Source of the DNA: Escherichia coli
Lineage (GTDB): Bacteria > Pseudomonadota > Gammaproteobacteria > Enterobacterales > Enterobacteriaceae
Length of the DNA: 64,000 nt
Assembly: GCF_003018115.1 (NCBI RefSeq)
Contig: NZ_CP027457.1
Reading direction: 5' to 3' (one strand)
This document shows positions 1 to 59,226 of the stretch, piece after piece. The position numbers were made by a program, and so were the translations under genes. The notes under the pieces were generated by a model that worked only from the letters and a program-made list of their open reading frames with translations, did not search any database and had not been told where the DNA came from. How positions within the stretch are numbered: the first letter of the stretch is position 1; each line of letters starts with the position of its first letter.

Positions 1-2796
1 ATAACCATTAGGGAAAATGCTCGTGTTCGTGCCACCAAATGCACCGGAACTCTTGTGTTGGTGCGCACCGGCACTATTTGCGGTCCCGCTAATACTATGG
101 GTATGCGCCCCGGTGTTATTCGTGGATTTGGTTCCGTAATCAAACGACGATGTGGTTTTCGTCCCCAAATCCGTACTGGATGCGCTGGCGCTGTGGGTGT
201 GCGATTTAATGCCGTCCTGTTCCTGAGATAATACGGCCCGACCACTGGCGGGCTTGCCCTTAATCGTCCAGCCACGCATATCAGGGATCACGCCTGACGG
301 ATAAGCAACTGCAAGTTTCGGGTATGCAGATTTGTCAAAAGTCTGCCCCTGCATCAGGGCATAACCAGACGGAACGGTATCTGATGGCCACGGGATTGGT
401 GCACCGACTGGATAAAACTCTGCAGGAGGATGAGCCGAGGTGTAAAGCTGCGCCCACGGCGACCAGTTTGCGTCGGTCGTATCCCGTCGTGAACGAATAA
501 ATGCCGGAGCATGAGCACCGCTTGTACCACTCCAGCCGATGAGTAACTCACCTTCGCCAACGGCTGTCATCCCTTTCAGGTGAATGATATTTCCATACGC
601 TGTTGGATATCCGTTGTTATACACCTCGTATAACTCAAGACCTGCTGCCCCCTGCGTATTGTCTGTCAGCGCGGTTACCCGACCTTTTGAAGCCAGATTA
701 ACTGATGATACTGCTGTTCCACCTGACGGTAACGCCCCGATCTCTGATGCCGTTGGCTTATTTCTGGAGTTATAGTCCCTTCGCCAGCCAGGTGAATAAT
801 CTGTTCCGTGATTAATATAGGTAAACTGGGCGTTAGTTGTTCCACCACCAGTGGAGGTGGTCGGTGTGGTAATGCGGATCGTCATCGCTGACTTTATCCC
901 CATTACTTCAATGACAGCTCCGGCGAGATGAATATTACCGCAGTCAGTATCAGTAATGATTTTATTATTGCCATAAGACCAGGAACCCTTGCACATCCAG
1001 TATGGATGGTTAAATGCTCCCTGAGAATCCAGCCACTCGATAAACTGTGCAGTCGTCCAGTTTCCTGTTGTTGTGCTTACTGACCCACCGAAGGCACGGC
1101 AGGCACCAATATTTTTCGTAAAGGTATCTTTGCCAGGGATATCCGCACCGTTCTGATCTTTCTGCAGACGTTTCTCAGCATTGTCATTGGCTGCTTTTAC
1201 TGCCTTTGGTGTCGCGGCAAGCGTTTCAGACGTGCTGTTGGTCGCGCTGCTTAGCTGGATTATCCCTTTCTGTGCTGTCGTTGCATCCTGTGCGGTGTAT
1301 TTCCCGTTAGCCAGGTCATACGCGGCCTTAACGGCTTTTGGTGTTGCCGCCAGTGACTCGGAAGTGCTGTTAGTCGCACTACTGAGCTGTACTATCCCCT
1401 TTTTCGTCGTGCTCGCATCCTCAAGCGCCACGGCGGATGCAATATCCTCTGCCCGTTTTGCTGCTGTCTCGGCGCGCGTTGCTGCGGATTCTGCCGTACT
1501 TTTGCTCTGAGCTGCCGCCGTCGCACTGCCAGCAGCCTCTGTCGCCTTCGTGGATGCCGTCGTGGCGCTGCTCTTCGCTGCTGACGCTTGTCTGGTCGCC
1601 TCATCTTTTGAAGCAGACGCCGATGATGCCGATGACGCCGCCGAACTGGCTGACGATGCGGCAGCCGTTTTTGAGGATTCTGCGCTGGTTTCCGACGCTT
1701 TCGCGTTCGTTTCGGATGTCTTCGCTGCGGAAGCAGACCTCGCTGCTGCGCTGGCCTGTTCAGTGGCTTCGCCAGCCTTCGTTGTGGCTGTTGAAGCAGA
1801 CGATGCGGCGCTTTCTGCCGATTTTCCGGCGGCGGTGGCACTGGCTGAGGCCTGCCCGGCACTTGTTGACGCTGCACTGGCAGACGACGCAGCCGCTGTT
1901 TTTGAGCCTGCCGCAGCCGAGGCGCTCTGTCCCGCTGCCGTTTCAGAAGACCTGGCGTTCGTCTCTGACGTTTTTGCCGCCTTCGCGGAATTTCCTGCCG
2001 CTGTTGCCGAGGAAGCTGCGCTACTGGCGCTCGAGGATGCGTTCGTTTCTGATGATTTTGCCGCCTCTTTTGAAGCCGACGCATCCCGGGCTGAGGTGGC
2101 AGCTTCTGACGCTTTCGTGGTCGCGGTGGATGCAGAAGTGGCTGCTGATTGTTGTGACGCTGCAGCATTCGTTTCTGACGTTTTCGCGGCACTGGCACTG
2201 GTAGCTGCCGCGCTTTTTGAGGACTCTGCAGCGGCAGCACTTTTTGATGCTTCAGTGGCCTTTGTTGATGCCGTTCCTGCGCTGGAAGACGCTGACTGAG
2301 CCGACGAAGCGGCCTGTCCGGCTGACGTGCTGGCTGCGCGTGCTGAGCCTGCAGCATCAGTCGCATGGGTTGCCGCCTCACGGGCAGATGTGCCGGCATC
2401 GCCGGCTGACTTCTTCGCGGCTGCCGTGTTCTGTGCCACCGCGGACGCGTTACGCGCCACCTCTTCCACCATCAGTTCAAAACGGCGCAGAGCCTCCGGA
2501 CGGGCATCATCCTCCGTCATGGCACCGAGAAAATCATTCAGCGTACCGGGTCGGGAATCTTCATACACGGTGATGGTCCCGGCATGTGACGGCGGGAATC
2601 CTTCCACCAACAGAATAACGCTGTACTGACCGTACTCAACGTCCATGCTGTAACGCCCGGCTTCATCCGGATTTTCTGAGGCCAGCGTGTTCACCACCAC
2701 CGCGGTGCTGTTACGTTTTGCTTTCAGCTGGATTGTGCAGTTCTGTACCGGTTTTCCTGTGCCGTCTTTCAGTACACCTGAAATCTTTACTGCCAT
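1..2796 (-). CDS. stf: Side tail fibre protein Stf, partial (C-terminal part beyond window start)
   Basis: Minus-strand frame open from ATG near 2796 to window edge; N-terminus [31 protein letters not shown] matches lambda Stf; long Ala/Ser-rich repeats; not in ORF track because no stop inside window. Confidence 0.8.
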
Positions 2797-2805
2797 ATTC
2801 ACCCC

Positions 2806-2832
2806 ACAAAAAAGCCCGCCTGAACAGGCGGG
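2806..2832 (-). terminator. Rho-independent terminator downstream of lom
   Basis: Inverted repeat GCCCGCCTG-loop-CAGGCGGGC followed by T-run on minus strand. Confidence 0.5.
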
Positions 2833-2860
2833 CTGTCATAACACTGTGTTACCTGGCTAA

Positions 2861-3460
2861 TCAGAACTTATAACCGACACCCACGATGAAACCGTCAGTG
2901 CGCCAGTCGCCACTGCCGGAGCCTTCATAAGCAATATCAATGGCCACGGATTCGGTCGGGTTAAACTGCACGCCAGCTCCCCACGCCAGAGACGTGTTGC
3001 TGTGGCGACCGTCATCACTTCCGGTCAGCACGTCGTGCGTTTTCCCCTTGTTGTCAGTTACGCGGAGATAATCCCCGGAGAAAGTCGACACACGGCTGTA
3101 AGCCATACCCGCCATCGCATACGCGCTGAACCATTCATTCACGCGCACAGACGGCCCCACCATCACGCTGAACCAGCGGTTACGCACGGAATCTTCATGC
3201 CAGCGGGTATCGCTGTAACGGGTAAGCTGGCGATTCTTGTCTCCTGCATAGCTGAATGACGTCACCAGCCCCAGTGTGTCCGTAAACTCATAACGGTATT
3301 TCACGTTAATCCCGTTAAGATCATCGCTGCCGGGAACGTTCGTCGAGGCATGAAGATACCCCGCGCTCAGCGTGGACTGATGTTCAGATGCCCATGCAGG
3401 CGCACCGGATACGGCCAGACAAATGGCTGCGGACAAAATGGCGGCATAAAGTTTACGCAT
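2861..3460 (-). CDS. lom: Outer membrane protein Lom (Ail/Lom family)
   Basis: 199 aa, signal peptide, beta-barrel-like sequence recognised as lambda Lom; position after J. Confidence 0.9.
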
Positions 3461-3482
3461 AATTACCTCTCGCTTTTCTGCA

Positions 3483-3512
3483 ATAAAAAAGGCACCATTT
3501 CTGGTGCCCTTA
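3483..3512 (-). terminator. Hairpin plus T-tract between J and lom (candidate terminator)
   Basis: GGCACC-AGAAAT-GGTGCC stem followed by TTTTTT on minus strand. Confidence 0.45.
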
Positions 3513-3529
3513 TATGGGTTATAACAATT

Positions 3530-6500
3530 TCAACGAATACTGATGCCGGAAGCGGCTTTTTTGGTCACAATCACCGTACAGTCGGTGATATTGCCTGCCC
3601 CCTGATTGCCTTTCTGGAAAATCTTAAACTCCAGAGTGACGCTACCACCACCACTAGGCATATCAATAACTGCACTGTAACTACCGGGAATGGCCCCTTT
3701 AGTTTCTCTGGATGCGATTAATACGCCGTTTTTGCGAACTTCAAAACCATAACCCGTGTATCGCGTGCCTCCTGGGTTATTTCCGCTCCCCGGATCGTCA
3801 TACGCTATACCGTTAAAAATAATGGGCGGAATAATAATCTGGCGGTCAAAGTTATGATCATCGCTGATGGTGACTGTAACCGTACCGTTTGGTGTTTCCG
3901 TGTTACCCCACGTACCGACTTTTTTCGGGAAGGCTTTTGATACAGCTTTAACGAAATCCCCTCTGACCTGGGTCGCCTCCAGCATGCCCTTAATCGTACA
4001 GTTCTGGTTAATCGTGACATTGTTGAGCGTTCCTGAGTTCGCATTCACACTACCACTGATATCCGCATTTTTAGCGGTCAGCTTTCCGTCTGATGTCAGG
4101 GAAAATACCGGAGGACTGCCACCGCTGGTAATGGTGGGGGCCGTCAGGCGTTTCAGGAACACTTCATTCATGAATATCTGATCGCCCTGACCAACAAACA
4201 TCGGCTTTGTGTTGCCATTCGCAGGATTAATCATCGCAATCCTGTCTGCTGCCAGCAGCACCTGACTCTGCATGCCGTCAGGGGTGTTCTCAATACCGGC
4301 ACCGATACCCGCAATATAAAGGCGTCCGTCCTGCATCTGCTGCAGCTTCACTGCCCACATGCTGTTCAGGTTATTATTTGTATCAACCTGAACCTTCTGT
4401 ATCTGCTGGATTGCCGCACTCTGGTCTTCCAGTTTCTTATTGACGGTCTGTGTTATTTCATTGCTGACATCCGTTATGGACGTCCTGATTTCAGTCAGGT
4501 CAGGCGCAAGCTGACCGTTATCAATCTGCGTCCACAGCTCCTGAGCCAGATGGGTTTTCCCTATCTCGCCTTTGAAAAAATCCAGATAGCCTGATGCATC
4601 ATCACTCGGCTGACCGACAGCCTCCACGAATGCCGATTTGCCAACGGTGTTCACACTGCGAACGTAAAAATAATAATCATGGCCCGGTTTGATATTGATA
4701 CTGGCGGCTATCCAGTACAGTGCCGTACCAAGATAACGCGCGCTGGTTTCAACCTGCCTGATATCCGCAATCCGTTTTTCCGAGAACCAGAACTCAAACT
4801 GTACCGTCGGGTCATAAACCGCAAGATGCGGCGTGGCGGTTATCTGAAAATAGCCCGGCGTCAGCTCAATCCGCGACGGCGCTGCCGGTGCGGCAATCCG
4901 GAACGATACCGACGCCGGATCGCCCTGCTGCCCCCACGCATTTACTGCCCGGACTGTCAGCCTGTAGTTCCCCAGAGCCAGTTGTGTGAAGCGGTAAGTG
5001 GTTTCCGTCGTCCGGGCCGTGCTGACCAGCCGCTCACGGCCGTCATCCGCTGCCACGGTCAGGCGAAGCAGGAAGCTCACGCCCTTCACCACCTTCGGCG
5101 TGTCCCAGCGCGCCAGCACCTGGTATTCCCCGCTGTCTGCGGTGACTTCTGCGGTCAGGTGCTGCACCGCTGGCGGCGTGACACCATTTACCGTGCCGCT
5201 CTGGTCGCCGTCAAAGTGCGCCCCGTTATCCACGATGGCCTCTTTTTCCGGTACATGCTGCACGGCGGTGATGGCATACGTGCCGTCGTCGTTCTCACGG
5301 ATACTCACGCAGCGGAACAGGCGCTGGCGCAACGTCGACAGCTTCAGCCCCCATACGCTGTATTCAGCAACGCCGTCAGGAACACGGCTCACTTTCACCT
5401 TCACGCCGTCGGTGACGGACTGAACCTCCACGCTGACCGGACTCCCCTGCCCGTCAACCAGGCTTATCAGCGTGGTGCCGGAAGATGGCAGCGTGATTTC
5501 ACGGTCGAGCGTCAGCGTCCGGGTCTGGCTGTTTACCGCCAGCACGCGCCCGCCGGTGCGGATACCGGCATAGTCATCATCGCAGATTTCAATGACATCG
5601 CCCGGTACATGGCGAAGCCCTTCGGCACCCACGCTGAAGTCCACGGTCTGCGTTTCCAGCAGTTCTGTTTTAATCAGCCACAGCCCGGCGCGGTGTGCCT
5701 GCCCCCGGCTGGTACAGCCAAAAGCATCCATCTTCGTGACGTTACGACCGTAACGGGCAATGGCCTGCGTGTCCTCCACAAGCTCTGTCGCCGTCTCCCA
5801 GCCGTTATTCGGGTCAATCCAGTTCACCTCAACGGCATTATGGCGGTCCTTCAGGGCGCTGAAGCTGTAGCGGAACGGCGCACCATCATCCGGCATCACC
5901 ACATTACTGCGGTTATAGGTCCACACCTTATCCGACGGTCGGTCCTGCACGAACGTCAGCGTCTGCCCGTTCCATACCGGCATACAGCGCATCGCAGAGC
6001 AGAAATCACTGAGCACATCCCACGCCTTGCGCTGTGTGGTCAGGTACGCATTACAGGTGATGCGCGGCTCTGTGCCGCCAAAACCGTCCGGCACCGACTG
6101 ATCGCAATGCTGGCCGATGACATACAGCGCCCATTTGTCCACATCCGCCGCACCAAGACGTTTCCCCATGCCGTAGCGCGGATGGGTCAGCATATCCCAC
6201 AGACACCAGGCCATGTTGTTGCTGTATGCTGGCTTAAACGTTCCGTCCCAGATACCGCTGTATTGCCGCGTCTGCGGGTTATAGTTCGACGGCACCTGCA
6301 GAATGCGCCCGCGCAGATGATAATTACGGCTCACCTGCTGGCTGCCGAACTGCTCCGAATCCACCTGCACGCCGACCAGTGCCGTGTTCGGGTAGCACTG
6401 TTTCACATCGATGATTTCGGTGTATGACGACCAGAGCGTTTTGTTCTGCAGCTGGTCTGTGGTGCTGTCCGGCGTCATCCTGCGCATCCGTATATTGAAC

Positions 6501-7027
6501 GGGCGCGGCGGCAGGTTACCCACCACCACCGAGGCCAGATACTGCGAGGTGGTTTTGCCCTTAATGGTGATGTCTTTTTCCGTCACCCAGCCACCATTAC
6601 GCTGGATCTGAACCAGCAGGCGGACTTCCGACGGATTCCGGTCCCCCTTTGAGGTGGTTTCCACCAGTGCCTGCACGCCGAAGGTAAAGCGCAGACGGTC
6701 GATGTTTGCAGACGTAATGGTGCGGGTGATCGGCGTGTCATATTTCACTTCCGTACCCAGCACCGTCTCGGAGCCGGAGGATTCAAACCCCTCCGGCGGT
6801 GTCTGCTCCTGCTCACCGGCACGGAACACCACCGTGACACCGGAGATGTTGGTATTCCCCTCAGTGTCCAGCACCGGCGTACTGTTCAGCAGCACGCTTT
6901 TTAATCCATCCACCGGACCTTCAACCGGCCCTTCGCTGATGGCATCGATCACACTCAGCAGCTGCGTGGACTTCAGGTTGTCCTTCGCTTCGCGCGGGGT
7001 ATGCCCCTTACTGCTGCCTTTACCCAT
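3530..7027 (-). CDS. J: Tail tip / host specificity protein J (central tail fibre), C-terminal domain divergent from lambda
   Basis: 1165 aa; N-terminal ~840 aa recognised as lambda J; last ~320 aa differ. Confidence 0.95.
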
Positions 7028-14932: not shown

Positions 14933-15331
14933 TTATTGCATTCTGGCCAGGCCGCGCTCTGTCATTTCGGCTGCCACACCGGCAGAGACACGAAACGCCG
15001 TTCCCGGCAGCACAAATGCCACAGGTTCATCCCGCGTGGCGTGAAGTGCATCAGTATGCAGCTTCACCAGTGCCACGACCGTGACCAGTTCAGACGTATC
15101 CAGAATCACGGTATCCGGCTGCGCTGATCCCACCTCATTTTCATGTCCGGTCAGCACATTTTCCCGGCTGAGAGGGGTGTCCTGACCGGCAGTTTCATCC
15201 GTGTCATCAAGCTCCTCTTCCAGCTCTGCCACACGGAGCGCCAGTTCTTCTTTCGTCCCCGTCAGGCTGACATCACGGTTCAGTTGTTCACCCAGCGAGC
15301 GGAGACGGGCAATCAGTTCATCTTTCGTCAT
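14933..15331 (-). CDS. FI: DNA packaging protein FI
   Basis: ORF track 14933-15370; trimmed to MTKDELIARL start, 132 aa as lambda FI. Confidence 0.85.
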   Translation of the reverse strand: MTKDELIARLRSLGEQLNRDVSLTGTKEELALRVAELEEELDDTDETAGQDTPLSRENVLTGHENEVGSAQPDTVILDTSELVTVVALVKLHTDALHATRDEPVAFVLPGTAFRVSAGVAAEMTERGLARMQ

Positions 15332-46114: not shown

Positions 46115-46148
46115 CTAAAAGCCACACTAACTAATGAGAGAAGTTGAA

Positions 46149-47429
46149 ATGAAATATCCGACAGGCGTGGAAAACCATGGAGGGAAATTACGTATCTGGT
46201 TTGTTTATAAAGACGTAAGAGTCAGGGAAAATCTGGGGGTTCCTGACACAGCAAAAAACAGGCGCGTTGCAGGTGAACTACGCTCCTCTGTTTGTTACGC
46301 AATAAAAACTGGTGTTTTCGACTATGCAAAACAGTTTCCCTCCTCACGCAATCTGGAAAAATTTGGTGAGGCCCGACAAGATTTAACCATAAAAGAACTG
46401 GCTGAAAAATTTCTGGCACTGAAAGAAACTGAAGTCGCCAAAACATCACTCAACACATACCGTGCCGTCATCAAAAATATCCTGAGCATAATCGGTGAAA
46501 AAAATCTTGCCTCATCGATTAATAAAGAAAAATTACTGGAGGTTCGTAAAGAGTTACTGACTGGATACCAGATCCCCAAAAGTAACTATATTGTTACACA
46601 ACCAGGGAGATCGGCTGTAACTGTAAATAATTACATGACAAATCTTAACGCCGTGTTCCAGTTTGGTGTTGATAACGGTTACCTGGCAGATAATCCGTTT
46701 AAGGGGATCTCGCCATTAAAGGAATCAAGAACCATTCCGGATCCTCTTTCGCGGGAAGAATTTATCCGTCTTATCGATGCGTGCAGAAATCAGCAAGCAA
46801 AAAATTTATGGTGTGTTTCTGTTTATACTGGAGTTCGCCCTGGTGAGCTGTGTGCACTTGGATGGGAGGACATAGATCTGAAAAATGGAACAATGATGAT
46901 CAGGAGAAATTTAGCAAAAGACCGTTTCACGGTACCAAAAACACAGGCGGGAACCAATCGGGTCATTCATCTTATTAAGCCAGCAATCGACGCTCTCCGG
47001 AGTCAGATGACATTAACGAGACTGAGCAAAGAGCATATCATTGATGTTCACCTCAGAGAGTATGGCAGAACAGAAAAACAAAAATGCACCTTTGTTTTTC
47101 AACCTGAAGTGTCAGCGAGAGTAAAAAATTATGGTGACCATTTTACCGTTGACTCAATAAGGCAGATGTGGGACGCAGCGATAAAACGTGCCGGACTCCG
47201 CCATCGAAAATCATATCAGTCGAGACATACTTATGCCTGCTGGTCGCTGACAGCTGGTGCTAACCCGGCATTTATAGCAAACCAGATGGGCCATGCAGAT
47301 GCGCAAATGGTATTTCAGGTATACGGAAAATGGATGTCTGAAAACAATAATGCACAGGTAGCTTTGTTAAATACACAGTTAAGCGAGTTTGCCCCAACCA
47401 TGCCCCATAACGAAGCAATGAAAAATTAA
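46149..47429 (+). CDS. intQ: Tyrosine recombinase / phage integrase (full-length)
   Basis: ORF track 46134-47429; C-terminal catalytic region with R...HxxR...Y pattern (ending HTYACW). Confidence 0.85.
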   Translation: MKYPTGVENHGGKLRIWFVYKDVRVRENLGVPDTAKNRRVAGELRSSVCYAIKTGVFDYAKQFPSSRNLEKFGEARQDLTIKELAEKFLALKETEVAKTSLNTYRAVIKNILSIIGEKNLASSINKEKLLEVRKELLTGYQIPKSNYIVTQPGRSAVTVNNYMTNLNAVFQFGVDNGYLADNPFKGISPLKESRTIPDPLSREEFIRLIDACRNQQAKNLWCVSVYTGVRPGELCALGWEDIDLKNGTMMIRRNLAKDRFTVPKTQAGTNRVIHLIKPAIDALRSQMTLTRLSKEHIIDVHLREYGRTEKQKCTFVFQPEVSARVKNYGDHFTVDSIRQMWDAAIKRAGLRHRKSYQSRHTYACWSLTAGANPAFIANQMGHADAQMVFQVYGKWMSENNNAQVALLNTQLSEFAPTMPHNEAMKN

Positions 47430-47616
47430 TTTAATATTTATCAAATAGTTAACACGCATGACTCTTGAAATCCATAAATTCAAGCGCAGTGCCCAGCCAT
47501 CCCGATACCGCTGCTTTCACCAAATCCTTAGTGCTTCTTTCGTGTTTTTCTATTGTCATAATGGTTATCTCTAAAAAAGAGGTAAGATGCGTACTACTTA
47601 CTCGCCGTTATTGGTA

Positions 47617-48636
47617 TTATTCAGAAAAAGTGAGTAAGACTTTGCAGCAATGTTTTTGATCCTGTTCAAATAAACTAATGGCATCAGCAACATGCTGGAA
47701 ATCAAACGTATGGGTAATTAATTTTTCTGGTTTAATTAACCCTTTACTTAACCAGTCGATAACGACCGGAAATTTATTTGCATTTAAGCGTGAAGAGAAA
47801 ATAGAGAGTTCTTTTCCGGTAATTCCTTGCTGAATCACTTCAGACGGTTCACTGGAGAACCCCATCAATACAATACGTGCCGCTGGAGAAGCCAGCGTTA
47901 CGGCCTCTTTCAAGATAGAAGGATGACAAGCCGCATCGATAATTAATGTCGGCTTGATGCCTTTTTCAGTGAAAATCTCGCCAAGCGGTGTCTGGCTGTT
48001 ATTAATCGCCCAGTCAGCCCCGCTCTCTTTCGCTTTTTCCAGTCGTTCATCAATGCGATCGGCAACAATCACATTTTTAACGTTATAGACGCCTTTTAAT
48101 ACCTGAACGATCGTCAGGCCGATTGGACCGGCACCATAAACCAGAACGGTATCATTTTCTGTCGGTTGACCATGTCCGGTTACGTTAGCCGCAATGGTAA
48201 AAGGTTCGATCATTACCGCATATTGATCGGCCACTGCTTCAGGAATTTTCCACGCATTTTTTGCCGGAACCACGGCATATTCACTGAAACCACCGTCAGC
48301 GTGCACACCTAATACAGCCAGTGTCATACAAACGTTCGGTTTACCTATAGAGCACGGATAGCAATGCCCACAGCTGACCACCGGATCGACAGCAACACGT
48401 TCACCGACTCTGGCGCTTTCCACGCCGTCACCCACTGCATCAATGACGCCAAAGAATTCATGACCAATGACGCGCGGATATTTCGCAAAAGGATTATGCC
48501 CACGATAAATATGGCTATCTGAACCACAAATTCCGGCAAGTTTCACTTTTACTCGTACTTCACCCGCTGACGGGGTGGGTATTTCACGTTCGACAATCGC
48601 CAGTTGATTCGGTTTTTCAATTAATATGCTTTTCAT
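47617..48636 (-). CDS. rspB: Zn-dependent alcohol dehydrogenase family protein RspB
   Basis: ORF track 47617-48660 trimmed to MKSILIEKPN, 339 aa; GHEFFG and Cys zinc ligands. Confidence 0.9.
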   Translation of the reverse strand: MKSILIEKPNQLAIVEREIPTPSAGEVRVKVKLAGICGSDSHIYRGHNPFAKYPRVIGHEFFGVIDAVGDGVESARVGERVAVDPVVSCGHCYPCSIGKPNVCMTLAVLGVHADGGFSEYAVVPAKNAWKIPEAVADQYAVMIEPFTIAANVTGHGQPTENDTVLVYGAGPIGLTIVQVLKGVYNVKNVIVADRIDERLEKAKESGADWAINNSQTPLGEIFTEKGIKPTLIIDAACHPSILKEAVTLASPAARIVLMGFSSEPSEVIQQGITGKELSIFSSRLNANKFPVVIDWLSKGLIKPEKLITHTFDFQHVADAISLFEQDQKHCCKVLLTFSE

Positions 48637-48647
48637 TATCTTACTCC

Positions 48648-49862
48648 TTACCAGTTCCACAGCGTGCCATCTTCCAGACGTGCGACTGGTAGATAAGCAG
48701 GTTCATAGGGATATTTCGCCGCCAGCTTTTCATCGAATTCGATACCAAGACCCGGTTTGTCTCCCGGATGCATATAGCCGTTATCGAAAGTCCAGTTGTG
48801 CGGGAAGACTTCGAGCATTTGTTCGGAATAACCCATGTATTCCTGGACACCGAAATTGGGGACCCACAGATCAAAATGCAGCGCCGCAGCCATGCAGACT
48901 GGTGACAAATCGGAAGGACCGTGTGAGCCAGTACGTACCTGATACAGCGAAGCAAAATCGGCAATCCGGCGCATACCGGTAATTCCGCCTGTATGGGTCA
49001 GCGTGGTGCGGATATAATCGATAAGTTGCTCTTCAATCAGTTGCTTGCAGTCCCAGATGCTGTTGAAGACTTCACCCACTGCGATGGGTGTGACGGTATG
49101 TTGGCGAATGAGACGGAAGCATTCCTGGTTTTCCGCAGGCGTCGGGTCTTCCATCCAGAACATGCGATAATCTTCAATGCTTTTACCAAAGCGCGCCGCT
49201 TCAATAGGCGTTAAGCGATGGTGCATGTCATGCAGCAAATGTTCATTAAAACCAAACTTGTTACGTACCGCGTCAAACAATTTCGGCATGAAATCGAGGT
49301 ATTTCTCCGTCGACCACAGCTGCTCTTCCGGCCACTGTCCTTTGGTTGCGGGTTCATAAGCCAGACCTTTACCTTTCGACATGCCGTAGGTGGTTTTCAT
49401 ACCAGGGATTCCGCACTGCACGCGGATGGCTTTGAATCCCAGCTCCTGATGACGGGCATAATCATCCAGAGCTTCATCAATACTGTGACCGGTGGTATGG
49501 CAATAAACCATCACCCCTTCACGAGACGCGCCGCCGAGTAACTGGTAAAGCGGCATGTTGGCAGCTTTGGCTTTAATATCCCACAGCGCCATATCAACCG
49601 CTGAAATGGCCGACATCGTAACCGGACCGCGACGCCAGTAAGCACCTTTATAGAAAAACTGCCAGATATCTTCGATACGGTGCGCATCGCGACCAATAAG
49701 CTGCGGACAAAGGTGATCCTGCAAATAAGAGGCCACGGAAAGCTCACGTCCATTGAGGGTGGCATCCCCAAGGCCCGTAATACCGTCCTCAGTGGTGATT
49801 TTTAATGTGACGAAATTACGCCCCGGACAGGTAACAAAAACTTCAGCCTTTACGATCTTCAT
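48648..49862 (-). CDS. rspA: Starvation-sensing protein RspA (enolase superfamily, mannonate dehydratase-like)
   Basis: ORF track 48648-49895 trimmed to [10 protein letters not shown], 404 aa. Confidence 0.9.
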
Positions 49863-50067
49863 GTTCGATTCCTTGCATCGCTTGTCGTGATGCATGAAAT
49901 CTACGCAACTGAGCTACTACCATACAAGTATGAAGATCAAAAAAAGCCGGAGTGATCACAAAAAAAGGCGTATATTTTCGCCATGAATGGTTGACAAAAG
50001 ATGAAATAGAGTACCTTTTATCAGCTGACGCTTCCTCGTATCTTATTGATAAAATGGATTTATGTTC

Positions 50068-50394
50068 CTACGTGCGCCCCCAGCCCGCAACAATGATCAA
50101 CATGCCGCAAAGCGCAATCAACGCACCCATCCAGTCATAAAGAGTCAGTTTCACGCCATCCACAACGCGCAGCCACATCAACGCCGTGCAGACATAAACG
50201 CCACCATAAGCCGCGTAAACACGCCCACTCGCCGCAGGATGCAACGTTAACAACCAGACAAACAGCGCCAGTGAAATCCCCGCCGGAAGCAACAGCCAGA
50301 TACTGGCGTTTCGTTTTAACCACAACCAGGGCAGAAAGCATCCAATAATTTCACACAGCGCAGTAGCAAAAAATAGTAACGTTGTTTTAATCAT
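50068..50394 (-). CDS. ynfA: UPF0060 inner membrane protein YnfA
   Basis: 108 aa, four TM segments. Confidence 0.85.
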
Positions 50395-50528
50395 CTTTGT
50401 CACTTATTGACATCATGTATAGTTATAGGGCCACATAATATCATCAATATAAACACCCTCCTGGTACGTTTTGCGTTCGCAGTGGATGGTGTAGAATCAC
50501 CTTTAATCATTCATACAGGGAATGAATT

Positions 50529-50870
50529 ATGAAAATCACTCTCAGCAAACGAATCGGCCTGCTCGCTTTTCTGCTGCCTTGCGCACTGGCATTGAGCACA
50601 ACTGTTCATGCCGAAACTAACAAACTGGTGATTGAGTCTGGCGACAGTGCACAAAGCCGCCAGCACGCCGCTATGGAAAAAGAGCAATGGAATGACACGC
50701 GCAATCTGCGTCAGAAAGTGAATAAACGCACTGAAAAAGAGTGGGATAAAGCCGACGCCGCTTTTGATAACCGCGATAAATGTGAGCAAAGCGCCAACAT
50801 CAATGCCTACTGGGAGCCCAATACTTTGCGCTGCCTGGACCGTCGAACTGGCCGCGTTATTACCCCCTAA
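50529..50870 (+). CDS. ynfB: Secreted protein YnfB
   Basis: 113 aa with signal peptide. Confidence 0.85.
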
Positions 50871-50904
50871 CCTGTTATTGATTTAAGGAATGTAAGGACA
50901 CGTT

Positions 50905-51465
50905 ATGCCAAGCGCCCACAGTGTTAAGCTACGCCCGCTGGAGCGTGAAGATTTACGCTATGTACATCAACTCGACAATAACGCCAGTGTGATGCGTTAC
51001 TGGTTTGAGGAACCCTACGAAGCCTTTGTTGAACTCTCTGATCTGTATGATAAGCATATTCACGATCAGAGCGAACGGCGCTTTGTGGTGGAATGTGACG
51101 GCGAAAAAGCCGGTCTGGTGGAGCTGGTGGAAATTAACCATGTTCATCGCCGCGCAGAATTTCAGATAATTATCTCCCCGGAGTATCAGGGGAAAGGTCT
51201 GGCAACCCGTGCCGCCAAATTAGCAATGGACTATGGCTTCACCGTTCTCAATCTCTATAAGCTGTATCTGATCGTCGATAAAGAGAATGAAAAAGCGATT
51301 CACATTTACCGCAAGCTTGGCTTTACGGTTGAAGGTGAATTGATGCATGAGTTCTTTATTAATGGTCAATATCGTAATGCCATTCGCATGTGTATATTCC
51401 AGCATCAGTATCTGGCAGAGCACAAAACACCGGGTCAGACTCTCCTGAAGCCGACCGCACAATAG
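50905..51465 (+). CDS. speG: Spermidine N1-acetyltransferase SpeG (GNAT)
   Basis: 186 aa, SpeG sequence. Confidence 0.95.
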
Positions 51466-51467
51466 CA

Positions 51468-52178
51468 TTAATAATAATCGATCGTATTTTTGATGGTGTA
51501 AACCCGTTCGACGGCGGGTTTTACTCCTTCATCAACAATGATCAGCTGACAGTCCACCGGATTGGCGTGACTGTCATATTCACAGCTCTGTTTTACATTA
51601 CCAACTCGTTGATTATTCAGTAAAGTAACCGCTGTGTAATCTAATTTTTTGATCGGGTCCGTTGATGGCGTGGCGCTGACAGATAATGTTTTGTCGTTAC
51701 TTTTCGTGGTTTTACCCAGTGGATAACCCTGATCATCATAGCGATATTCCATCTGCATTTGTTTGCTGCTGGCTTTAATCACGAAGCCATTATCATCGGT
51801 TTCCCAACTCACCCCGGCGGAAGGTAATTCCGCTAGCTGGCATTTTCCCTGTAAACGTACTCTCTTCTCCAGCGTCTCGGCATCACGGTAATAATTGGCG
51901 TCCAGTACCAGAGCGACCACGGTATTATTTTCCAGATCCAGTAATTCGAGTGAATCAAAACAGCCTTCTTCCGACAAAGTCCCCGAAACACGTTTCGTCA
52001 CTTCACCTTGCTCATCCATTAATGTCTGAGTGAAATCTTTTACCGGACCACGCAGCGGATCAAAATCGAATTCATTAGAGAAACTGGCCATCTCAGGAGT
52101 AAATGAAAGTGTTACCTCTGTGCGGTCACATCCTGTGAGGAATATCGCGAGTAAGCATGGTAGTAATTTGTATTTCAC
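51468..52178 (-). CDS. ynfC: Lipoprotein YnfC
   Basis: ORF track 51468-52214; lipobox LTGC; start probably the alternative codon at V13 giving 236 aa. Confidence 0.8.
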   Translation of the reverse strand: MKYKLLPCLLAIFLTGCDRTEVTLSFTPEMASFSNEFDFDPLRGPVKDFTQTLMDEQGEVTKRVSGTLSEEGCFDSLELLDLENNTVVALVLDANYYRDAETLEKRVRLQGKCQLAELPSAGVSWETDDNGFVIKASSKQMQMEYRYDDQGYPLGKTTKSNDKTLSVSATPSTDPIKKLDYTAVTLLNNQRVGNVKQSCEYDSHANPVDCQLIIVDEGVKPAVERVYTIKNTIDYY

Positions 52179-52285
52179 AACAGTCACCAGAGAGTAGAGA
52201 TGATTCTCAATCATAGTAGCAAATACAGTACTTTACACGTTAAATGCTATGCTTAAAGAAGTTATCTTCGCGTAAGGAGCTTATG

Positions 52286-52591
52286 ATGAAACTCTCAACC
52301 TGCTGTGCCGCGCTTCTGCTCGCCCTCGCCTCACCCGCGGTACTTGCCGCGCCGGGATCCTGTGAGCGCATACAGAGCGATATATCACAGCGCATTATCA
52401 ATAATGGCGTACCCGAAAGCAGCTTCACGTTAAGTATTGTACCCAATGACCAGGTTGATCAGCCTGATTCCCAGGTCGTCGGGCATTGTGCTAATGATAC
52501 GCATAAAATTCTCTACACCCGCACCACCAGCGGTAACGTCTCTGCTCCCGCGCAGTCTACCCAGGATGGCGCGCCTGCCGAACCGCAGTAA
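52286..52591 (+). CDS. ynfD: Secreted protein YnfD
   Basis: ORF track 52244-52591 trimmed to MKLSTCCAALLLALASPAVLA, 101 aa. Confidence 0.8.
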   Translation: MKLSTCCAALLLALASPAVLAAPGSCERIQSDISQRIINNGVPESSFTLSIVPNDQVDQPDSQVVGHCANDTHKILYTRTTSGNVSAPAQSTQDGAPAEPQ

Positions 52592-52789
52592 CACATTATC
52601 GACTGAACGCCGGATATGACACATCCGGCGATTTGAACATACAACATAATCCCACCATATTACTCATACCCTTCTATTGATGTGGATTAATAATTCTTAA
52701 CCCAAAATGGGTAGACTTCCTCTATTGTTAGCGCGCTAAATATTCAATATATAAACATTTATATAACGATAAAGAACAGGGAGTGAGTT

Positions 52790-55216
52790 ATGTCAAAAAA
52801 TGACCGAATGGTGGGCATCAGCCGCAGAACACTCGTTAAATCTACCGCGATAGGTTCTCTGGCGCTGGCTGCAGGCGGTTTTTCTTTGCCGTTTACCCTG
52901 CGCAGTGCAGCAGCAGCGGTACAACAGGCCCGCGAAAAAGTGGTCTGGGGTGCCTGTTCCGTCAACTGTGGTAGCCGCTGTGCACTTCGTCTACATGTTA
53001 AAGATAATGAAGTGACCTGGGTGGAAACTGACAATACCGGCAGCGATGAGTACGGCAACCATCAGGTACGCGCCTGTTTGCGCGGTCGCTCCATCCGCCG
53101 GCGTATTAATCATCCCGATCGCTTGAATTACCCAATGAAACGCGTGGGTAAACGCGGTGAAGGCAAATTCGAACGGATTAGCTGGGATGAAGCCCTGGAT
53201 ACTATCGCCAGTAGCCTGAAGAAAACCGTCGAACAATATGGCAATGAGGCTGTATATATTCAGTACTCTTCGGGGATCGTTGGCGGCAATATGACCCGCT
53301 CTTCGCCATCAGCCTCGGCGGTCAAACGCCTGATGAACTGCTACGGCGGTTCACTCAATCAGTATGGCTCCTACAGCACCGCACAAATTTCCTGTGCCAT
53401 GCCCTACACCTACGGCAGTAATGATGGCAACAGCACCACGGATATTGAAAACAGCAAGCTGGTCGTGATGTTTGGTAACAACCCGGCAGAAACCCGCATG
53501 AGCGGCGGTGGCATCACTTATCTTCTTGAAAAAGCGCGCGAGAAATCGAACGCCAAAATGATTGTTATCGATCCGCGATATACCGATACGGCTGCTGGTC
53601 GTGAAGATGAATGGCTTCCTATTCGCCCGGGCACCGATGCCGCGCTGGTTGCGGGGATTGCCTGGGTATTGATTAACGAAAATCTCGTTGATCAACCTTT
53701 TCTCGATAAATACTGCGTCGGCTATGACGAAAATACCTTACCCGCAGATGCACCCAAAAATGGTCACTATAAAGCCTATATTCTTGGTGAAGGAAACGAT
53801 AAAACAGCGAAAACGCCGCAGTGGGCTTCGCAAATTACCGGTATCCCGGTGGACCGTATCATCAAACTGGCGCGTGAAATTGGCACAGCAAAACCCGCTT
53901 ATATCTGCCAGGGCTGGGGGCCACAACGCCAGGCAAACGGCGAGCTGACCGCACGCGCTATTGCTATGTTGCCTATTCTGACGGGCAATGTCGGCATCAG
54001 CGGCGGAAATAGTGGCGCGCGTGAATCGACCTATACCATTACCATAGAACGCCTGCCGGTGCTGGATAATCCGGTCAAAACGTCAATCTCCTGCTTCAGC
54101 TGGACAGATGCTATCGATCATGGCCCGCAAATGACGGCAATCCGCGACGGCGTCCGGGGCAAAGATAAACTGGATGTGCCCATTAAGTTCATCTGGAACT
54201 ACGCGGGAAATACCCTGGTTAATCAGCATTCTGACATCAACAAAACGCATGAAATTCTGCAGGACGAATCGAAATGCGAAATGATTGTGGTCATCGAAAA
54301 CTTTATGACCTCATCGGCAAAATATGCCGACATTCTGCTGCCAGACCTGATGACCGTTGAGCAGGAAGATATTATTCCTAACGACTACGCCGGTAACATG
54401 GGATATCTCATTTTCCTCCAGCCAGTCACCAGCGAAAAATTCGAACGTAAACCGATTTACTGGATCCTGAGTGAAGTCGCGAAACGTCTTGGACCTGACG
54501 TCTATCAAAAGTTCACTGAAGGTCGCACGCAGGAACAATGGTTACAACATCTGTACGCCAAAATGCTTGCCAAAGATCCGGCGTTACCGTCTTACGACGA
54601 ACTGAAAAAAATGGGTATCTATAAGCGTAAAGATCCCAATGGTCATTTTGTCGCCTACAAAGCATTTCGTGACGACCCCGAGGCAAATCCACTTAAAACA
54701 CCTTCCGGTAAGATTGAAATTTATTCCAGCAAGCTGGCTGAAATTGCCCGTACCTGGGAACTGGAAAAAGATGAAGTGATAAGCCCACTGCCAGTTTATG
54801 CCTCTACCTTTGAAGGCTGGGACTCACCTGAACGTAGAACCTTCCCACTGCAACTGTTTGGTTTCCATTACAAATCCCGTACTCACTCGACCTACGGCAA
54901 TATTGATCTCCTGAAGGCTGCCTGCCGTCAGGAGGTGTGGATCAACCCTATAGATGCGCAGAAACGTGGGATTGCCAACGGCGATATGGTGCGGGTGTTT
55001 AACAATCGTGGCGAAGTTCGGCTACCAGCCAAAGTGACACCACGTATTCTCCCTGGAGTTAGCGCTATGGGCCAGGGAGCCTGGCACGAGGCCAATATGT
55101 CTGGCGATAAAATCGACCATGGAGGCTGTGTGAATACGCTAACCACTCTGCGCCCTTCACCACTGGCGAAGGGAAACCCGCAGCATACGAATCTGGTCGA
55201 GATCGAAAAAATATAA
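52790..55216 (+). CDS. ynfE: Molybdopterin oxidoreductase, DMSO/selenate reductase-type catalytic subunit YnfE (Tat signal)
   Basis: 808 aa, twin-arginine motif SRRTLVK, Cys cluster CSVNCGSRC. Confidence 0.9.
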   Translation: MSKNDRMVGISRRTLVKSTAIGSLALAAGGFSLPFTLRSAAAAVQQAREKVVWGACSVNCGSRCALRLHVKDNEVTWVETDNTGSDEYGNHQVRACLRGRSIRRRINHPDRLNYPMKRVGKRGEGKFERISWDEALDTIASSLKKTVEQYGNEAVYIQYSSGIVGGNMTRSSPSASAVKRLMNCYGGSLNQYGSYSTAQISCAMPYTYGSNDGNSTTDIENSKLVVMFGNNPAETRMSGGGITYLLEKAREKSNAKMIVIDPRYTDTAAGREDEWLPIRPGTDAALVAGIAWVLINENLVDQPFLDKYCVGYDENTLPADAPKNGHYKAYILGEGNDKTAKTPQWASQITGIPVDRIIKLAREIGTAKPAYICQGWGPQRQANGELTARAIAMLPILTGNVGISGGNSGARESTYTITIERLPVLDNPVKTSISCFSWTDAIDHGPQMTAIRDGVRGKDKLDVPIKFIWNYAGNTLVNQHSDINKTHEILQDESKCEMIVVIENFMTSSAKYADILLPDLMTVEQEDIIPNDYAGNMGYLIFLQPVTSEKFERKPIYWILSEVAKRLGPDVYQKFTEGRTQEQWLQHLYAKMLAKDPALPSYDELKKMGIYKRKDPNGHFVAYKAFRDDPEANPLKTPSGKIEIYSSKLAEIARTWELEKDEVISPLPVYASTFEGWDSPERRTFPLQLFGFHYKSRTHSTYGNIDLLKAACRQEVWINPIDAQKRGIANGDMVRVFNNRGEVRLPAKVTPRILPGVSAMGQGAWHEANMSGDKIDHGGCVNTLTTLRPSPLAKGNPQHTNLVEIEKI

Positions 55217-55273
55217 CCCACTACAACCATAAATTCTGGCATGACATTTTGTTTGAAAAGCAATAAGTGAGTA

Positions 55274-57700
55274 ATGATGAAAATCCATACCACAGAGGCG
55301 CTCATGAAGGCTGAAATCAGCCGTAGAAGTCTGATGAAAACCTCCGCACTTGGCAGTCTTGCGCTGGCAAGCAGTGCTTTCACTCTGCCATTTTCCCAAA
55401 TGGTCCGAGCGGCAGAGGCACCGGTAGAAGAGAAAGCGGTCTGGAGTTCCTGCACCGTTAACTGCGGGAGCCGCTGTCTGTTACGTTTGCATGTGAAAGA
55501 TGACACCGTGTACTGGGTGGAGTCTGATACGACAGGTGACGACGTCTACGGTAATCATCAGGTTCGTGCGTGTTTACGCGGGCGCTCTATCCGCCGACGG
55601 ATGAATCATCCTGATAGGTTGAAATATCCCATGAAGCGCGTCGGCAAGCGCGGTGAAGGTAAATTTGAACGGATAAGTTGGGACGAAGCCCTGGATACCA
55701 TCAGTGATAATCTTCGGCGGATCCTGAAAGATTACGGCAATGAGGCTGTACATGTCCTGTACGGAACAGGCGTAGATGGCGGAAACATCACCAACTCAAA
55801 CGTCCCGTACCGTCTGATGAACTCATGTGGTGGTTTTCTCAGTCGCTATGGCAGCTACAGTACCGCACAGATCAGTGCCGCAATGAGTTATATGTTCGGT
55901 GCCAATGATGGCAACAGCCCGGATGATATCGCCAATACGAAACTGGTCGTTATGTTCGGAAATAACCCGGCAGAAACACGGATGAGCGGCGGTGGTGTCA
56001 CTTACTACGTCGAGCAAGCCCGCGAACGTTCAAACGCACGCATGATCGTCATCGATCCACGTTATAACGACACAGCTGCCGGGCGTGAAGATGAATGGCT
56101 GCCCATTCGCCCTGGCACCGATGGCGCACTGGCCTGTGCGATTGCCTGGGTACTGATTACTGAAAACATGGTCGATCAGCCATTTCTCGACAAATATTGT
56201 GTTGGTTACGATGAAAAAACGCTGCCCGCCAACGCACCACGTAACGCGCATTATAAAGCCTATATTCTGGGCGAAGGGCCTGACGGCATAGCTAAAACGC
56301 CGGAATGGGCAGCAAAAATCACCAGCATCCCGGCAGAAAAAATTATCCAGTTGGCACGAGAGATCGGTTCAGCAAAACCTGCTTATATTTGTCAGGGTTG
56401 GGGGCCACAACGACACTCCAACGGCGAACAAACATCCCGCGCTATTGCCATGCTTTCCGTTCTCACCGGTAACGTCGGCATAAACGGCGGCAACTCAGGC
56501 GTACGCGAAGGTAGCTGGGATCTGGGGGTAGAATGGTTCCCGATGCTCGAGAATCCTGTTAAAACGCAGATTTCCGTCTTTACATGGACAGATGCCATCG
56601 ACCATGGTACGGAAATGACCGCGACCCGTGATGGTGTTCGTGGAAAAGAAAAACTGGATGTCCCCATCAAGTTTTTATGGTGCTACGCCAGTAACACATT
56701 GATCAATCAACATGGCGACATCAATCACACCCATGAGGTGCTTCAGGATGACAGCAAGTGCGAGATGATTGTTGGCATTGACCACTTCATGACTGCCTCG
56801 GCTAAGTATTGCGATATCCTGTTGCCCGACCTGATGCCAACAGAGCAAGAAGACCTTATCTCTCATGAATCTGCAGGGAATATGGGCTATGTGATCCTCG
56901 CCCAACCCGCAACCTCAGCAAAATTTGAACGCAAACCCATCTACTGGATGCTGAGTGAAGTCGCCAAACGCTTAGGACCAGACGTTTATCAAACCTTTAC
57001 TGAAGGTCGCAGTCAGCATGAATGGATCAAATATCTCCATGCGAAAACGAAGGAACGTAACCCTGAGATGCCCGACTACGAGGAGATGAAAACGACCGGG
57101 ATCTTTAAGAAAAAATGCCCGGAAGAACACTACGTCGCTTTCCGCGCATTCCGTGAAGATCCACAGGCAAACCCGTTGAAAACACCTTCGGGGAAAATCG
57201 AAATTTATTCTGAACGACTGGCGAAGATTGCAGATACCTGGGAATTGAAAAAAGATGAAGTTATTCATCCCCTTCCAGCTTATACGCCAGGTTTTGATGG
57301 CTGGGACGATCCCCTGCGGAAAACCTATCCACTGCAGTTAACGGGCTTCCACTACAAAGCGCGTACCCACTCCAGCTACGGCAATATTGATGTGTTACAG
57401 CAGGCCTGCCCACAAGAGGTGTGGATCAACCCCATTGATGCTCAGGCACGCGGTATCCGTCATGGCGATACCGTGCGGGTATTTAACAATAATGGAGAAA
57501 TGCTGATTGCCGCAAAAGTGACTCCGCGTATTCTGCCTGGCGTTACCGCCATCGGGCAAGGTGCGTGGCTTAAAGCGGATATGTTTGGTGACCGGGTCGA
57601 TCACGGCGGCAGTATTAATATTCTGACCTCTCACCGCCCTTCACCGCTGGCAAAGGGAAACCCGTCGCACAGCAATCTTGTCCAGATCGAAAAGGTTTAA
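55274..57700 (+). CDS. ynfF: DMSO reductase-type catalytic subunit paralog YnfF (Tat signal)
   Basis: 808 aa, tandem paralog of ynfE. Confidence 0.9.
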   Translation: MMKIHTTEALMKAEISRRSLMKTSALGSLALASSAFTLPFSQMVRAAEAPVEEKAVWSSCTVNCGSRCLLRLHVKDDTVYWVESDTTGDDVYGNHQVRACLRGRSIRRRMNHPDRLKYPMKRVGKRGEGKFERISWDEALDTISDNLRRILKDYGNEAVHVLYGTGVDGGNITNSNVPYRLMNSCGGFLSRYGSYSTAQISAAMSYMFGANDGNSPDDIANTKLVVMFGNNPAETRMSGGGVTYYVEQARERSNARMIVIDPRYNDTAAGREDEWLPIRPGTDGALACAIAWVLITENMVDQPFLDKYCVGYDEKTLPANAPRNAHYKAYILGEGPDGIAKTPEWAAKITSIPAEKIIQLAREIGSAKPAYICQGWGPQRHSNGEQTSRAIAMLSVLTGNVGINGGNSGVREGSWDLGVEWFPMLENPVKTQISVFTWTDAIDHGTEMTATRDGVRGKEKLDVPIKFLWCYASNTLINQHGDINHTHEVLQDDSKCEMIVGIDHFMTASAKYCDILLPDLMPTEQEDLISHESAGNMGYVILAQPATSAKFERKPIYWMLSEVAKRLGPDVYQTFTEGRSQHEWIKYLHAKTKERNPEMPDYEEMKTTGIFKKKCPEEHYVAFRAFREDPQANPLKTPSGKIEIYSERLAKIADTWELKKDEVIHPLPAYTPGFDGWDDPLRKTYPLQLTGFHYKARTHSSYGNIDVLQQACPQEVWINPIDAQARGIRHGDTVRVFNNNGEMLIAAKVTPRILPGVTAIGQGAWLKADMFGDRVDHGGSINILTSHRPSPLAKGNPSHSNLVQIEKV

Positions 57701-57710
57701 GGAGTAGCCC

Positions 57711-58328: not shown

Positions 58329-58329
58329 A

Positions 58330-59184: not shown

Positions 59185-59226
59185 CAAATTGGTGCGGGGC
59201 AACCCGCACATTTCAGGATGTTAGGA

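Follow-up and report, generated by a model that had tools for sequence, protein, structure and literature searches.

Phages 21 and 434, the prototypes of the J modules described below, have been under study since the 1960s. In lambda gpJ the shaft is defined as residues 809-861, and the rearrangement of shaft, fibre and receptor domain has been described (PMC11101478). The C-terminus of 434 J is the classical h434 host-range determinant, which shifts lambda from LamB to OmpC (PMC3509688, PMC11101478). Natural gpJ C-termini joined to lambda gpJ at lambda aa 964 suffice for the same retargeting and tell OmpC alleles apart (PMC11338833), and one J mutation gives phage 21 added use of OmpC (PMC11336670). 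Here, we describe the mosaic structure, breakpoints, domain architecture and wide distribution of a J gene from the window, a stretch of 64,000 nucleotides of Escherichia coli DNA (contig NZ_CP027457.1). With a probability of roughly 0.8, it is the intact J of a lambdoid Qin-type prophage, a three-part recombinant mosaic that acts as lambda gpJ does and for which OmpC is the likeliest porin.

3530..7027, minus strand: J (tail-tip attachment and host-specificity protein), complete, from the open reading frame list and translation; 1165 codons plus stop

The J product has 1165 aa and lambda J 1132 aa, the lengths already given by an earlier model reading of the letters and open reading frames (the sequence-only reading). 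A length of 1165 aa is ordinary for J (1163 positions in the lambda_TipJ profile, 1160 aa in phage 21). The protein scores 2326.5 bits on NCBIfam NF049904 lambda_TipJ (cutoff 1950), with residues 1-1165 aligned full-length onto profile positions 1-1163, and is identical to RefSeq WP_000515714.1 (E. coli CFS3246). Its Pfam domains are, in order, FNIII-A_GpJ, Phage-tail_3, Ig_J, Ig_J_second, Phage_Tail_Tip and Ig_GpJ_C, with the matches in the backbone at aa 86-207, 330-498, 610-714 and 716-818. The lambda_TipJ order is thus complete: hub/FNIII-A, Phage-tail_3, two Ig/FNIII domains, helical shaft, beta-prism fibre and C-terminal Ig-like receptor-binding domain. PDB sequence matches are to lambda gpJ (8xcj/8iyk) and A8 gpJ (9wca), at E values of 1e-86 to 1e-95. 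By analogy with other members of lambda_TipJ, the protein is predicted to form the trimeric tail tip and central fibre of virions. G+C content within J falls from about 0.60 to about 0.48 starting near aa 741, upstream of the point of divergence described below. Two ORFs run antisense within the region on the plus strand (3867-4181 and 3350-3721); both are without Pfam matches and were set aside as chance ORFs.

3488..3511, minus strand: terminator-like hairpin between J and lom, from a consensus scan; 10-bp stem, then a T run
2861..3460, minus strand: lom (Ail/Lom outer-membrane protein), directly downstream of J; ORF, RefSeq WP_001230375.1
1..2796, minus strand: stf side tail fibre, first ~932 of 1024 codons, running off the start of the window; mapped to CFS3246 stf WP_000279080.1

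In the tail operon the order is H-M-L-K-I-J, with lom and stf coming next (ORFs and CFS3246 annotation), which fits lambda_TipJ. In the RefSeq annotation of the identical CFS3246 region the gene order is I-J-lom-stf-tfa, as in lambda, and phages 434 and 21 carry an annotated terminator at the same place between J and lom. The surrounding element is a full-length Qin-type prophage with IS elements in its early region; the CFS3246 prophage is collinear with it and 99.98% identical to window positions 15314-47521. Such a prophage may be so crippled by IS insertions that J is a silent passenger, never built into infectious particles, whose predicted receptor has no current role. ISEc22, a partial ISNCY element and frameshifted ORFs in the early part of the collinear CFS3246 prophage speak for this, though we hold it to be somewhat improbable: the genes for head, tail, lysis, terminase and integrase are all intact, as is J itself, and co-resident lambdoid phages could rescue the tail genes through recombination or complementation. 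It also concerns the use of J and not its identity, and is compatible with a mosaic J directed at OmpC.

The departure of the J C-terminus from lambda J, claimed by the sequence-only reading, is borne out by global alignment. Over aa 1-815, 796 of 815 residues are identical to lambda J (97.7%), as against 55.6% (133/239) over the last 250 aa, below the more than 90% set in advance as the mark of an undiverged C-terminus. That reading was right that J departs from lambda but placed the onset too late, at about residue 840: identity is lost at aa ~816-821 (window ~4568-4582), and the divergent block, which it ended at 4490, reaches ~90 nt further. Between aa 816 and 960, 63 of 117 aligned positions are identical and 28 residues have no lambda counterpart; over aa 961-1165, 102 of 194 are identical (52.6%). 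The divergence is uneven, with a fibre stretch (aa ~941-1000) at 85-95% nucleotide identity to lambda. In the receptor-binding domain defined by Pfam (aa 1029-1165), 48 of 126 residues match lambda (38%) and 11 positions are gapped; by sequence it is not a receptor domain of the lambda (LamB-binding) type.

4583..7027, minus strand: shared backbone, aa 1-815 (hub domains, FNIII-A, Phage-tail_3, Ig_J, Ig_J_second), from nucleotide and amino acid identity and Pfam
4151..4582, minus strand: phage-21-type module, aa ~816-959 (alpha-helical shaft and upper beta-prism fibre), from amino acid and nucleotide identity
4028..4414, minus strand: central straight fibre (beta-prism), Pfam Phage_Tail_Tip, aa 872-1000; PF09327, E 2.5e-30
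3533..4150, minus strand: phage-434-type module, aa 960-1165 (lower fibre and receptor-binding domain), from amino acid and nucleotide identity
3536..3943, minus strand: Ig-like C-terminal receptor-binding domain, Pfam Ig_GpJ_C, aa 1029-1164; PF12421, E 6.4e-25

Comparison with phages 434 and 21 resolves J into three parts. The backbone (aa 1-815) is common to lambda, 434 and 21, with 90-100% nucleotide identity per 60-nt bin and 97.5-97.7% amino acid identity to all three; the sites that distinguish 21 from 434 are mixed along it, 62 of them 21-like and 54 434-like. The second part (~816-959) holds the shaft and upper fibre of phage 21. Over aa 816-960, 140 of 145 residues are identical to phage 21 J and 63-64 of 117 to lambda and 434, in which 28 residues are unmatched; per bin, nucleotide identity is 90-98% to 21 and 46-62% to lambda and 434. 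Seventy phage records contain this module, among them those of phage 21, VT1-Sakai and Stx2 phage 1717. Informative sites are of the 21 type up to J nt 2877, and the switch to 434 falls between J nt 2877 and 2878 (window 4151/4150), in the segment [31 protein letters not shown] of the central fibre, which is conserved in all J proteins and contains invariant columns of the J alignment. From there (aa 960-1165) the lower fibre and receptor domain are those of 434, with 92-100% nucleotide identity per bin. Over aa 961-1165, 201 of 205 residues are identical to 434 J (differences N1047D, I1136V, Q1138H and G1143R) and all 205 to phage mEp460_ev081; for aa 1029-1165, identity is 133/137 to 434 J and 44% to phage 21 J. 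The three parts would have been brought together by homologous recombination among lambdoid phages, and the locus can serve as a textbook case of modular exchange at a conserved linker within a phage receptor-binding protein. The sequence-only reading had missed this two-part replacement of the C-terminus, a phage-21-type shaft followed by a 434-type receptor domain.

That reading had also predicted a receptor other than lambda's. The last 206 residues being of the phage 434 type, and 434 J being the determinant that shifts LamB to OmpC use, the sequence speaks for this prediction. With 97-98% identity between its receptor-binding domain and that of 434, J most likely binds the porin OmpC and not LamB. 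In the sequenced hybrid lambda h434 imm21, J is of the 434 type from aa 711 onward, and the lambda aa 964 joint of the engineered chimeras corresponds to aa ~992 of J here, in the same conserved fibre stretch as the natural junction (aa 959/960). We infer OmpC binding and, by homology with lambda gpJ (PMC11101478), a triggering mechanism in which the trimeric C-terminal domain would dock its distal loops onto the trimeric porin; binding would twist the beta-prism fibre and flip and remodel the helical shaft, and the FNIII domains would then be released and the tail tip opened for DNA ejection. The prediction that particles of this prophage family would depend on OmpC and not on LamB helps in choosing indicator strains and in reading resistance mutations.

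The added OmpC use gained by phage 21 through one mutation, together with the allele discrimination of natural gpJ C-termini, means that the specificity of J may be allele-restricted or shifted. The 434-type domain could, via its loop substitutions relative to 434, accept certain OmpC alleles only, or another porin such as OmpF. Of the four substitutions relative to 434, N1047 and G1143 lie in segments with indels relative to lambda and 21, which are inter-strand loops in the AlphaFold2 (AF2) model; 434-type domains vary among themselves at sites 1077/1078, 1127 and 1143 (G, R or W at 1143); single J mutations alter the porin use of phage 21 (PMC11336670); and for the gpJ chimeras A8 and 1A2 the use of OmpC depends on the allele (PMC11338833). 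We nevertheless judge such a shift distinctly unlikely, with a receptor domain 97% identical to that of 434, the identical domain in the isolated, plaque-forming phage mEp460_ev081, and near-identical domains in PhiR34_1, mEp332 and Ayreon, whose recorded host is E. coli K-12 or MG1655, although all of this would be compatible with a preference among alleles. That J has kept LamB as its receptor, as in lambda and phage 21, its C-terminus having diverged by neutral drift, is very improbable despite the shaft module shared with phage 21 (native receptor LamB) and an Ig-like fold common to all J receptor domains, as aa 1029-1165 are 38% identical to lambda, 44% to phage 21 and 97% to OmpC-using 434, and as sharp module boundaries with 92-100% nucleotide identity to a different donor type indicate recombination and rule out drift as the source of the divergence.

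To return to the mosaic J with OmpC as its likeliest porin, its C-terminal part was modelled as an AF2 monomer (aa 801-1165, 21-sequence alignment, mean pLDDT 57.7), the structure prediction that had been proposed as a check. The beta-sandwich of the receptor-binding domain (pLDDT 74-91) is the sole reliable part of the model; the shaft and fibre are poor, with pLDDT below 50 over about aa 877-1000, as expected of an intertwined trimer modelled as a monomer. The top Foldseek matches of the model are the lambda gpJ fibre (8xck/8xcj) and A8 gpJ (9wca, and 9wcb in complex with OmpC) at E values of 1e-15 to 1e-23, with a TM score, normalised to target, of 0.69 for 9wcb. Because only the receptor domain is reliable, these matches confirm the family and give no loop-level detail.

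4364..4597, minus strand: predicted alpha-helical shaft, aa 811-888, from AF2 secondary structure
4430..4522, minus strand: 28 residues extra relative to lambda and 434, aa ~836-866 (gap placement ambiguous), from BLASTP and MAFFT gaps

The predicted shaft fills the gap between Pfam Ig_J_second (ending at 818) and Phage_Tail_Tip (starting at 872), with helices at aa 811-822, 826-836 and 841-888 (pLDDT 50-68). Its lower helix has ~48 residues, as against 21 in lambda (aa 841-861), and the flanking motifs YLxFFKG and DGxxYxAGxG are 86 aa apart here and 58 aa apart in lambda. The 33-aa surplus over lambda J is mostly this 28-aa longer shaft and not a bigger receptor-binding domain. A clean heptad register was sought in the shaft and not found, the hydrophobic pattern being roughly 3-4 spaced. 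Shaft length varies among J proteins, with at least five classes between the two motifs (58, 64, 86, 136 and 159 aa). A speculative and rather doubtful extension is that the shaft is a length-variable module, made up partly of a 29-residue unit, shuffled independently of the receptor domain and serving as a second, hitherto unrecognised tuning element for host range or the ejection trigger, while the 434-type loop sites (1047, 1077/1078, 1127 and 1143) track OmpC allelic diversity. If so, shaft length might, for instance, determine how far J extends through O-antigen or capsule, or how high the energy barrier to flipping the shaft is.

The exact J protein, WP_000515714.1, is seen on 809 public contigs, and the same mosaic occurs in roughly one complete E. 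coli genome in five and, at 95-99% nucleotide identity, in the isolated phages phiSTEC1575-Stx2k, vB_EcoS-569R4, PhiR42_1, ev243, Kati, mEp332, Ayreon and cdtI. These phages, and mEp460_ev081 with its identical receptor domain, speak for viable parts. That this variant is very common and already annotated had escaped the sequence-only reading. The mosaic is already catalogued and is nothing new, and with an exact RefSeq match and hundreds of contigs its discovery value is little; the OmpC prediction is of practical use in selecting natural C-termini of gpJ with which to retarget lambda delivery vectors. In the literature, no receptor reports were found for the phages that share this mosaic J, namely phiSTEC1575-Stx2k, the PhiR phages, mEp332 and the ev phages.

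Among known systems, 434 J (UMO75286.1; h434 determinant, receptor OmpC) matches J here in its backbone (97.5% identical), its last 205 aa (98%, including the whole of Ig_GpJ_C) and its I-J-lom-stf context, but it has 1137 aa and a short lambda-type shaft, with aa 816-960 only 55% identical and 28 residues absent. Phage 21 J (UMO75436.1; native receptor LamB; 1160 aa) has the same long shaft and upper fibre, whereas its receptor-binding domain is of another type, resembling the A8 gpJ domain of PDB 9wca. Lambda gpJ (NP_040600; PDB 8IYK, 8XCK, 8XCJ) shares family, domain order and presumably trigger mechanism, but its shaft is 28 aa shorter, its receptor domain has several loop indels, and its receptor, LamB, differs from the one predicted here. 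The same three-part mosaic is found in phiSTEC1575-Stx2k, ev243, Kati, PhiR42_1, mEp332, WP_000515714.1 and WP_039023163.1; WP_000515714.1 is identical and the others have essentially only point substitutions in J (6 aa in AR435 WP_039023163.1; 7 aa, including G1127R, in phiSTEC1575-Stx2k), but the host prophage or phage genomes differ. The AR435 copy of the J C-terminus was left out of the context comparison: it belongs to another prophage, in which the tape-measure gene is longer and stf is disrupted. In the engineered lambda gpJ chimeras A8 and 1A2 (PDB 9WCA/9WCB; PMC11338833), a natural C-terminus joined in the conserved fibre stretch likewise retargets the tip to OmpC; the A8 receptor domain, however, resembles that of phage 21 and shares about 48-52% identity with the domain here, and the engineered junction lies at lambda aa 964, the natural one at lambda aa ~932.

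The tail-tip protein J of the window matches the NCBIfam profile NF049904 (lambda_TipJ) end to end over 1163 positions, scoring 2326 bits (cutoff 1950 bits), and its Pfam domain set is the full gpJ architecture. Upstream of J lie the lambda tail genes H, M, L, K and I. The gene, its domains and its downstream neighbours are as follows.

3530..7027, minus strand: J ORF, 3498 nt, 1165 aa; the divergent part is the 3' third
J aa 86-207: FNIII-A_GpJ (Pfam)
J aa 330-498: Phage-tail_3 (Pfam)
J aa 610-714: Ig_J (Pfam)
J aa 716-818: Ig_J_second (Pfam)
J aa 872-1000: Phage_Tail_Tip (Pfam)
J aa 1029-1164: Ig_GpJ_C, "C-terminal receptor binding domain" (Pfam)
3488-3511: terminator-like hairpin, downstream of J
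2861-3460: lom, downstream of J
1-2796, minus strand: long stf, downstream of J, crossing the window start with its last ~93 codons beyond it

In the identical copy carried by E. coli CFS3246, stf encodes 1024 aa. Its long Ala/Ser-rich repeat region produces spurious long ORFs in other frames (1392-2399), and GAHTHS-like motifs recur in its His-rich C-terminus.

Window J was aligned to the reference lambda J (NC_001416), with the following identities by segment.

J aa 1-815: 796/815 (97.7%)
J aa 816-960: 63/117, plus 28 residues without counterpart
J aa 961-1165: 102/194 (52.6%)
J aa 1029-1165 (Pfam receptor domain): 48/126 (38%)
J last 250 aa: 133/239 (55.6%)

The C-terminus thus departs from that of lambda as the sequence-only reading had claimed, the 55.6% over the last 250 residues being far below the >90% set against that claim. 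The divergent region, which that reading had placed at 3530-4490, is real, with its onset at residues ~816-821 (window ~4568-4582), slightly upstream of the proposed right edge. Within it, the fibre stretch at aa ~941-1000 retains 85-95% DNA identity to lambda. G+C content falls from ~0.60-0.67 to ~0.47-0.50 near J aa 741 (window 4700-4900, aa ~710-775); this drop is upstream of the divergence point, so the compositional and recombination boundaries do not coincide.

A megablast search against phage genomes returned full-length matches of 95-99% in phiSTEC1575-Stx2k, vB_EcoS-569R4, PhiR42_1, ev243, Kati, mEp332, Ayreon, phi458 and cdtI; phage 434 and its relatives matched at 91% coverage. Compared with 434 J by BLASTP, the window protein showed the 28-aa gap already seen with lambda, but was nearly identical from aa 961 through the C-terminus. 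Searched alone against phage genomes, the shaft segment (window 4148-4582) matched phage 21 (95%), VT1-Sakai and Stx2 phage 1717, with no match in 434 or lambda. The terminal segment (3533-4147) matched mEp460_ev081 (99.8%) and lambda h434 imm21 (98.5%), the lambda match being confined to its first 172 nt. Breakpoints were located from a five-way DNA alignment in 60-nt bins and from sites at which 21 and 434 differ. Residues 1-815 form a shared backbone whose informative sites are a patchwork (62 21-like, 54 434-like); the gene is 21-type throughout from ~aa 821 to J nt 2877 (window 4151), and 434-type over the remainder, J nt 2878 (window 4150) through the stop codon. Residues 816-960 are identical to phage 21 at 140 of 145 positions, and residues 961-1165 to phage 434 at 201 of 205 (differences N1047D, I1136V, Q1138H and G1143R); the last 205 residues are identical to mEp460_ev081 (205/205). 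By these alignments, the divergent region is best described as a phage-21-type long shaft followed by a 434-type receptor domain.

In an alignment of J homologues, the 434-type domain occurs with shafts of 58, 64, 86 and 159 aa, and the phage-21-type shaft with at least three receptor-domain types, which shows shaft and receptor domain reassorting freely among these proteins. Module junctions map to [31 protein letters not shown], a stretch invariant in that alignment; such placement within a conserved linker is the expected signature of homologous recombination. Shaft lengths fall into at least five classes (58, 64, 86, 136 and 159 aa), taken as the distance separating two conserved motifs, YLxFFKG and DGxxYxAGxG (J aa 811-888, window 4364-4597; homologues P0059, P0061 and P0027). 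The P0059 shaft holds three tandem 29-aa units at exact 29-residue spacing; these match a unit of window J, [29 protein letters not shown], with scores of 49, 44 and 90 (shuffle maximum 42). The length polymorphism, built partly from this unit, and the precise position of the natural breakpoint (window 4150/4151) are both descriptive and only mildly new points.

In the C-terminal part of lambda gpJ, FNIII-1/2 is followed by an alpha-helical shaft spanning residues 809-861, then by the beta-prism "central straight fibre", and last by an Ig-like receptor-binding domain that bears four distal loops; once LamB is bound, the receptor domains spread apart, the fibre twists, the shaft flips ~180 degrees with part becoming beta-sheet, the FNIII strings dissociate and the tip opens (PMC11101478). 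The 28 extra residues of window J are located in the helical shaft. The AF2 model, which spans aa 801-1165, has helices at 811-822, 826-836 and 841-888 (pLDDT only 50-68), giving a lower shaft helix of ~48 residues at that confidence versus 21 in lambda, and a beta-sandwich receptor domain (pLDDT 74-91). The top Foldseek matches were fibre structures of lambda (8xck, 8xcj) and of the engineered gpJ chimera A8 (9wca, and 9wcb with OmpC bound), and a PDB sequence search found the same entries (E 1e-86 to 1e-95).

Window J is an already known, very common variant: the exact 1165-aa sequence is public as "host specificity protein J" (RefSeq WP_000515714.1), occurs on 809 contigs and belongs to a 90%-identity cluster of 34,633 members. 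Many complete E. coli genomes carry the 1053-nt shaft and receptor segment at 100% identity, and it is covered at ≥80% in 1163 of 5426 genomes. The lambdoid prophage (window 1 to ~47500) is a full-length version of K-12 Qin, itself a remnant of this element, with dicABC, relBE, hokD, cspB/F/I, essD, rrrQ, nohA, complete head and tail genes and stf-tfaQ-pinQ, flanked by rspAB and, at the opposite end, by ydfK/ydfJ.

46134-47429, plus strand: integrase

All morphogenesis genes, including J, are intact; this copy may not be inducible, since ISEc22 and a partial ISNCY element interrupt its early region. CFS3246 and other strains have a region that matches the window at 99.98-100% identity. The only structural differences from CFS3246 are a short non-matching patch near the gpFI/major capsid boundary (15257-15314) and, at 47517-47521, the lack of the IS2 copy that adjoins the CFS3246 integrase. 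Identity drops to 98.9% in the host flank (47517-60721), which shows that the window derives from a strain other than CFS3246.

Phage 434 uses OmpC as its receptor, and lambda binds OmpC once its J is replaced by that of 434 (PMC3509688, PMC11101478). In the sequenced host-range hybrid lambda h434 imm21 (OM418627; J gene 405-3818), J is lambda to aa 705 and 434-type from aa 711. The receptor domain of this classical h434 allele carries two substitutions relative to sequenced phage 434, with N at 1078 and W at 1143 in window numbering; at 1143, 434 itself has R and window J has G. Predicted loops are among the positions that are variable within 434-type domains or unlike 434 in window J (1047, 1077/1078, 1127, 1143). 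Single J substitutions alter porin use in phage 21 (PMC11336670), and natural gpJ C-termini tell OmpC alleles apart (PMC11338833); all three points are caveats on a prediction of OmpC. Given receptor use by 434 and h434, the graft data below and a receptor domain 97-98% identical to that of 434, OmpC is the most likely receptor of window J, with a probability of roughly 0.8. The proposal that the receptor is unlike that of lambda is supported and, through the 434-type domain, becomes specific as OmpC (predicted). Lambda particles with a natural gpJ C-terminus grafted at lambda aa 964 are OmpC-dependent (PMC11338833); that graft point is equivalent to aa ~992 of window J and lies in the conserved fibre stretch that also holds the natural junction described here.
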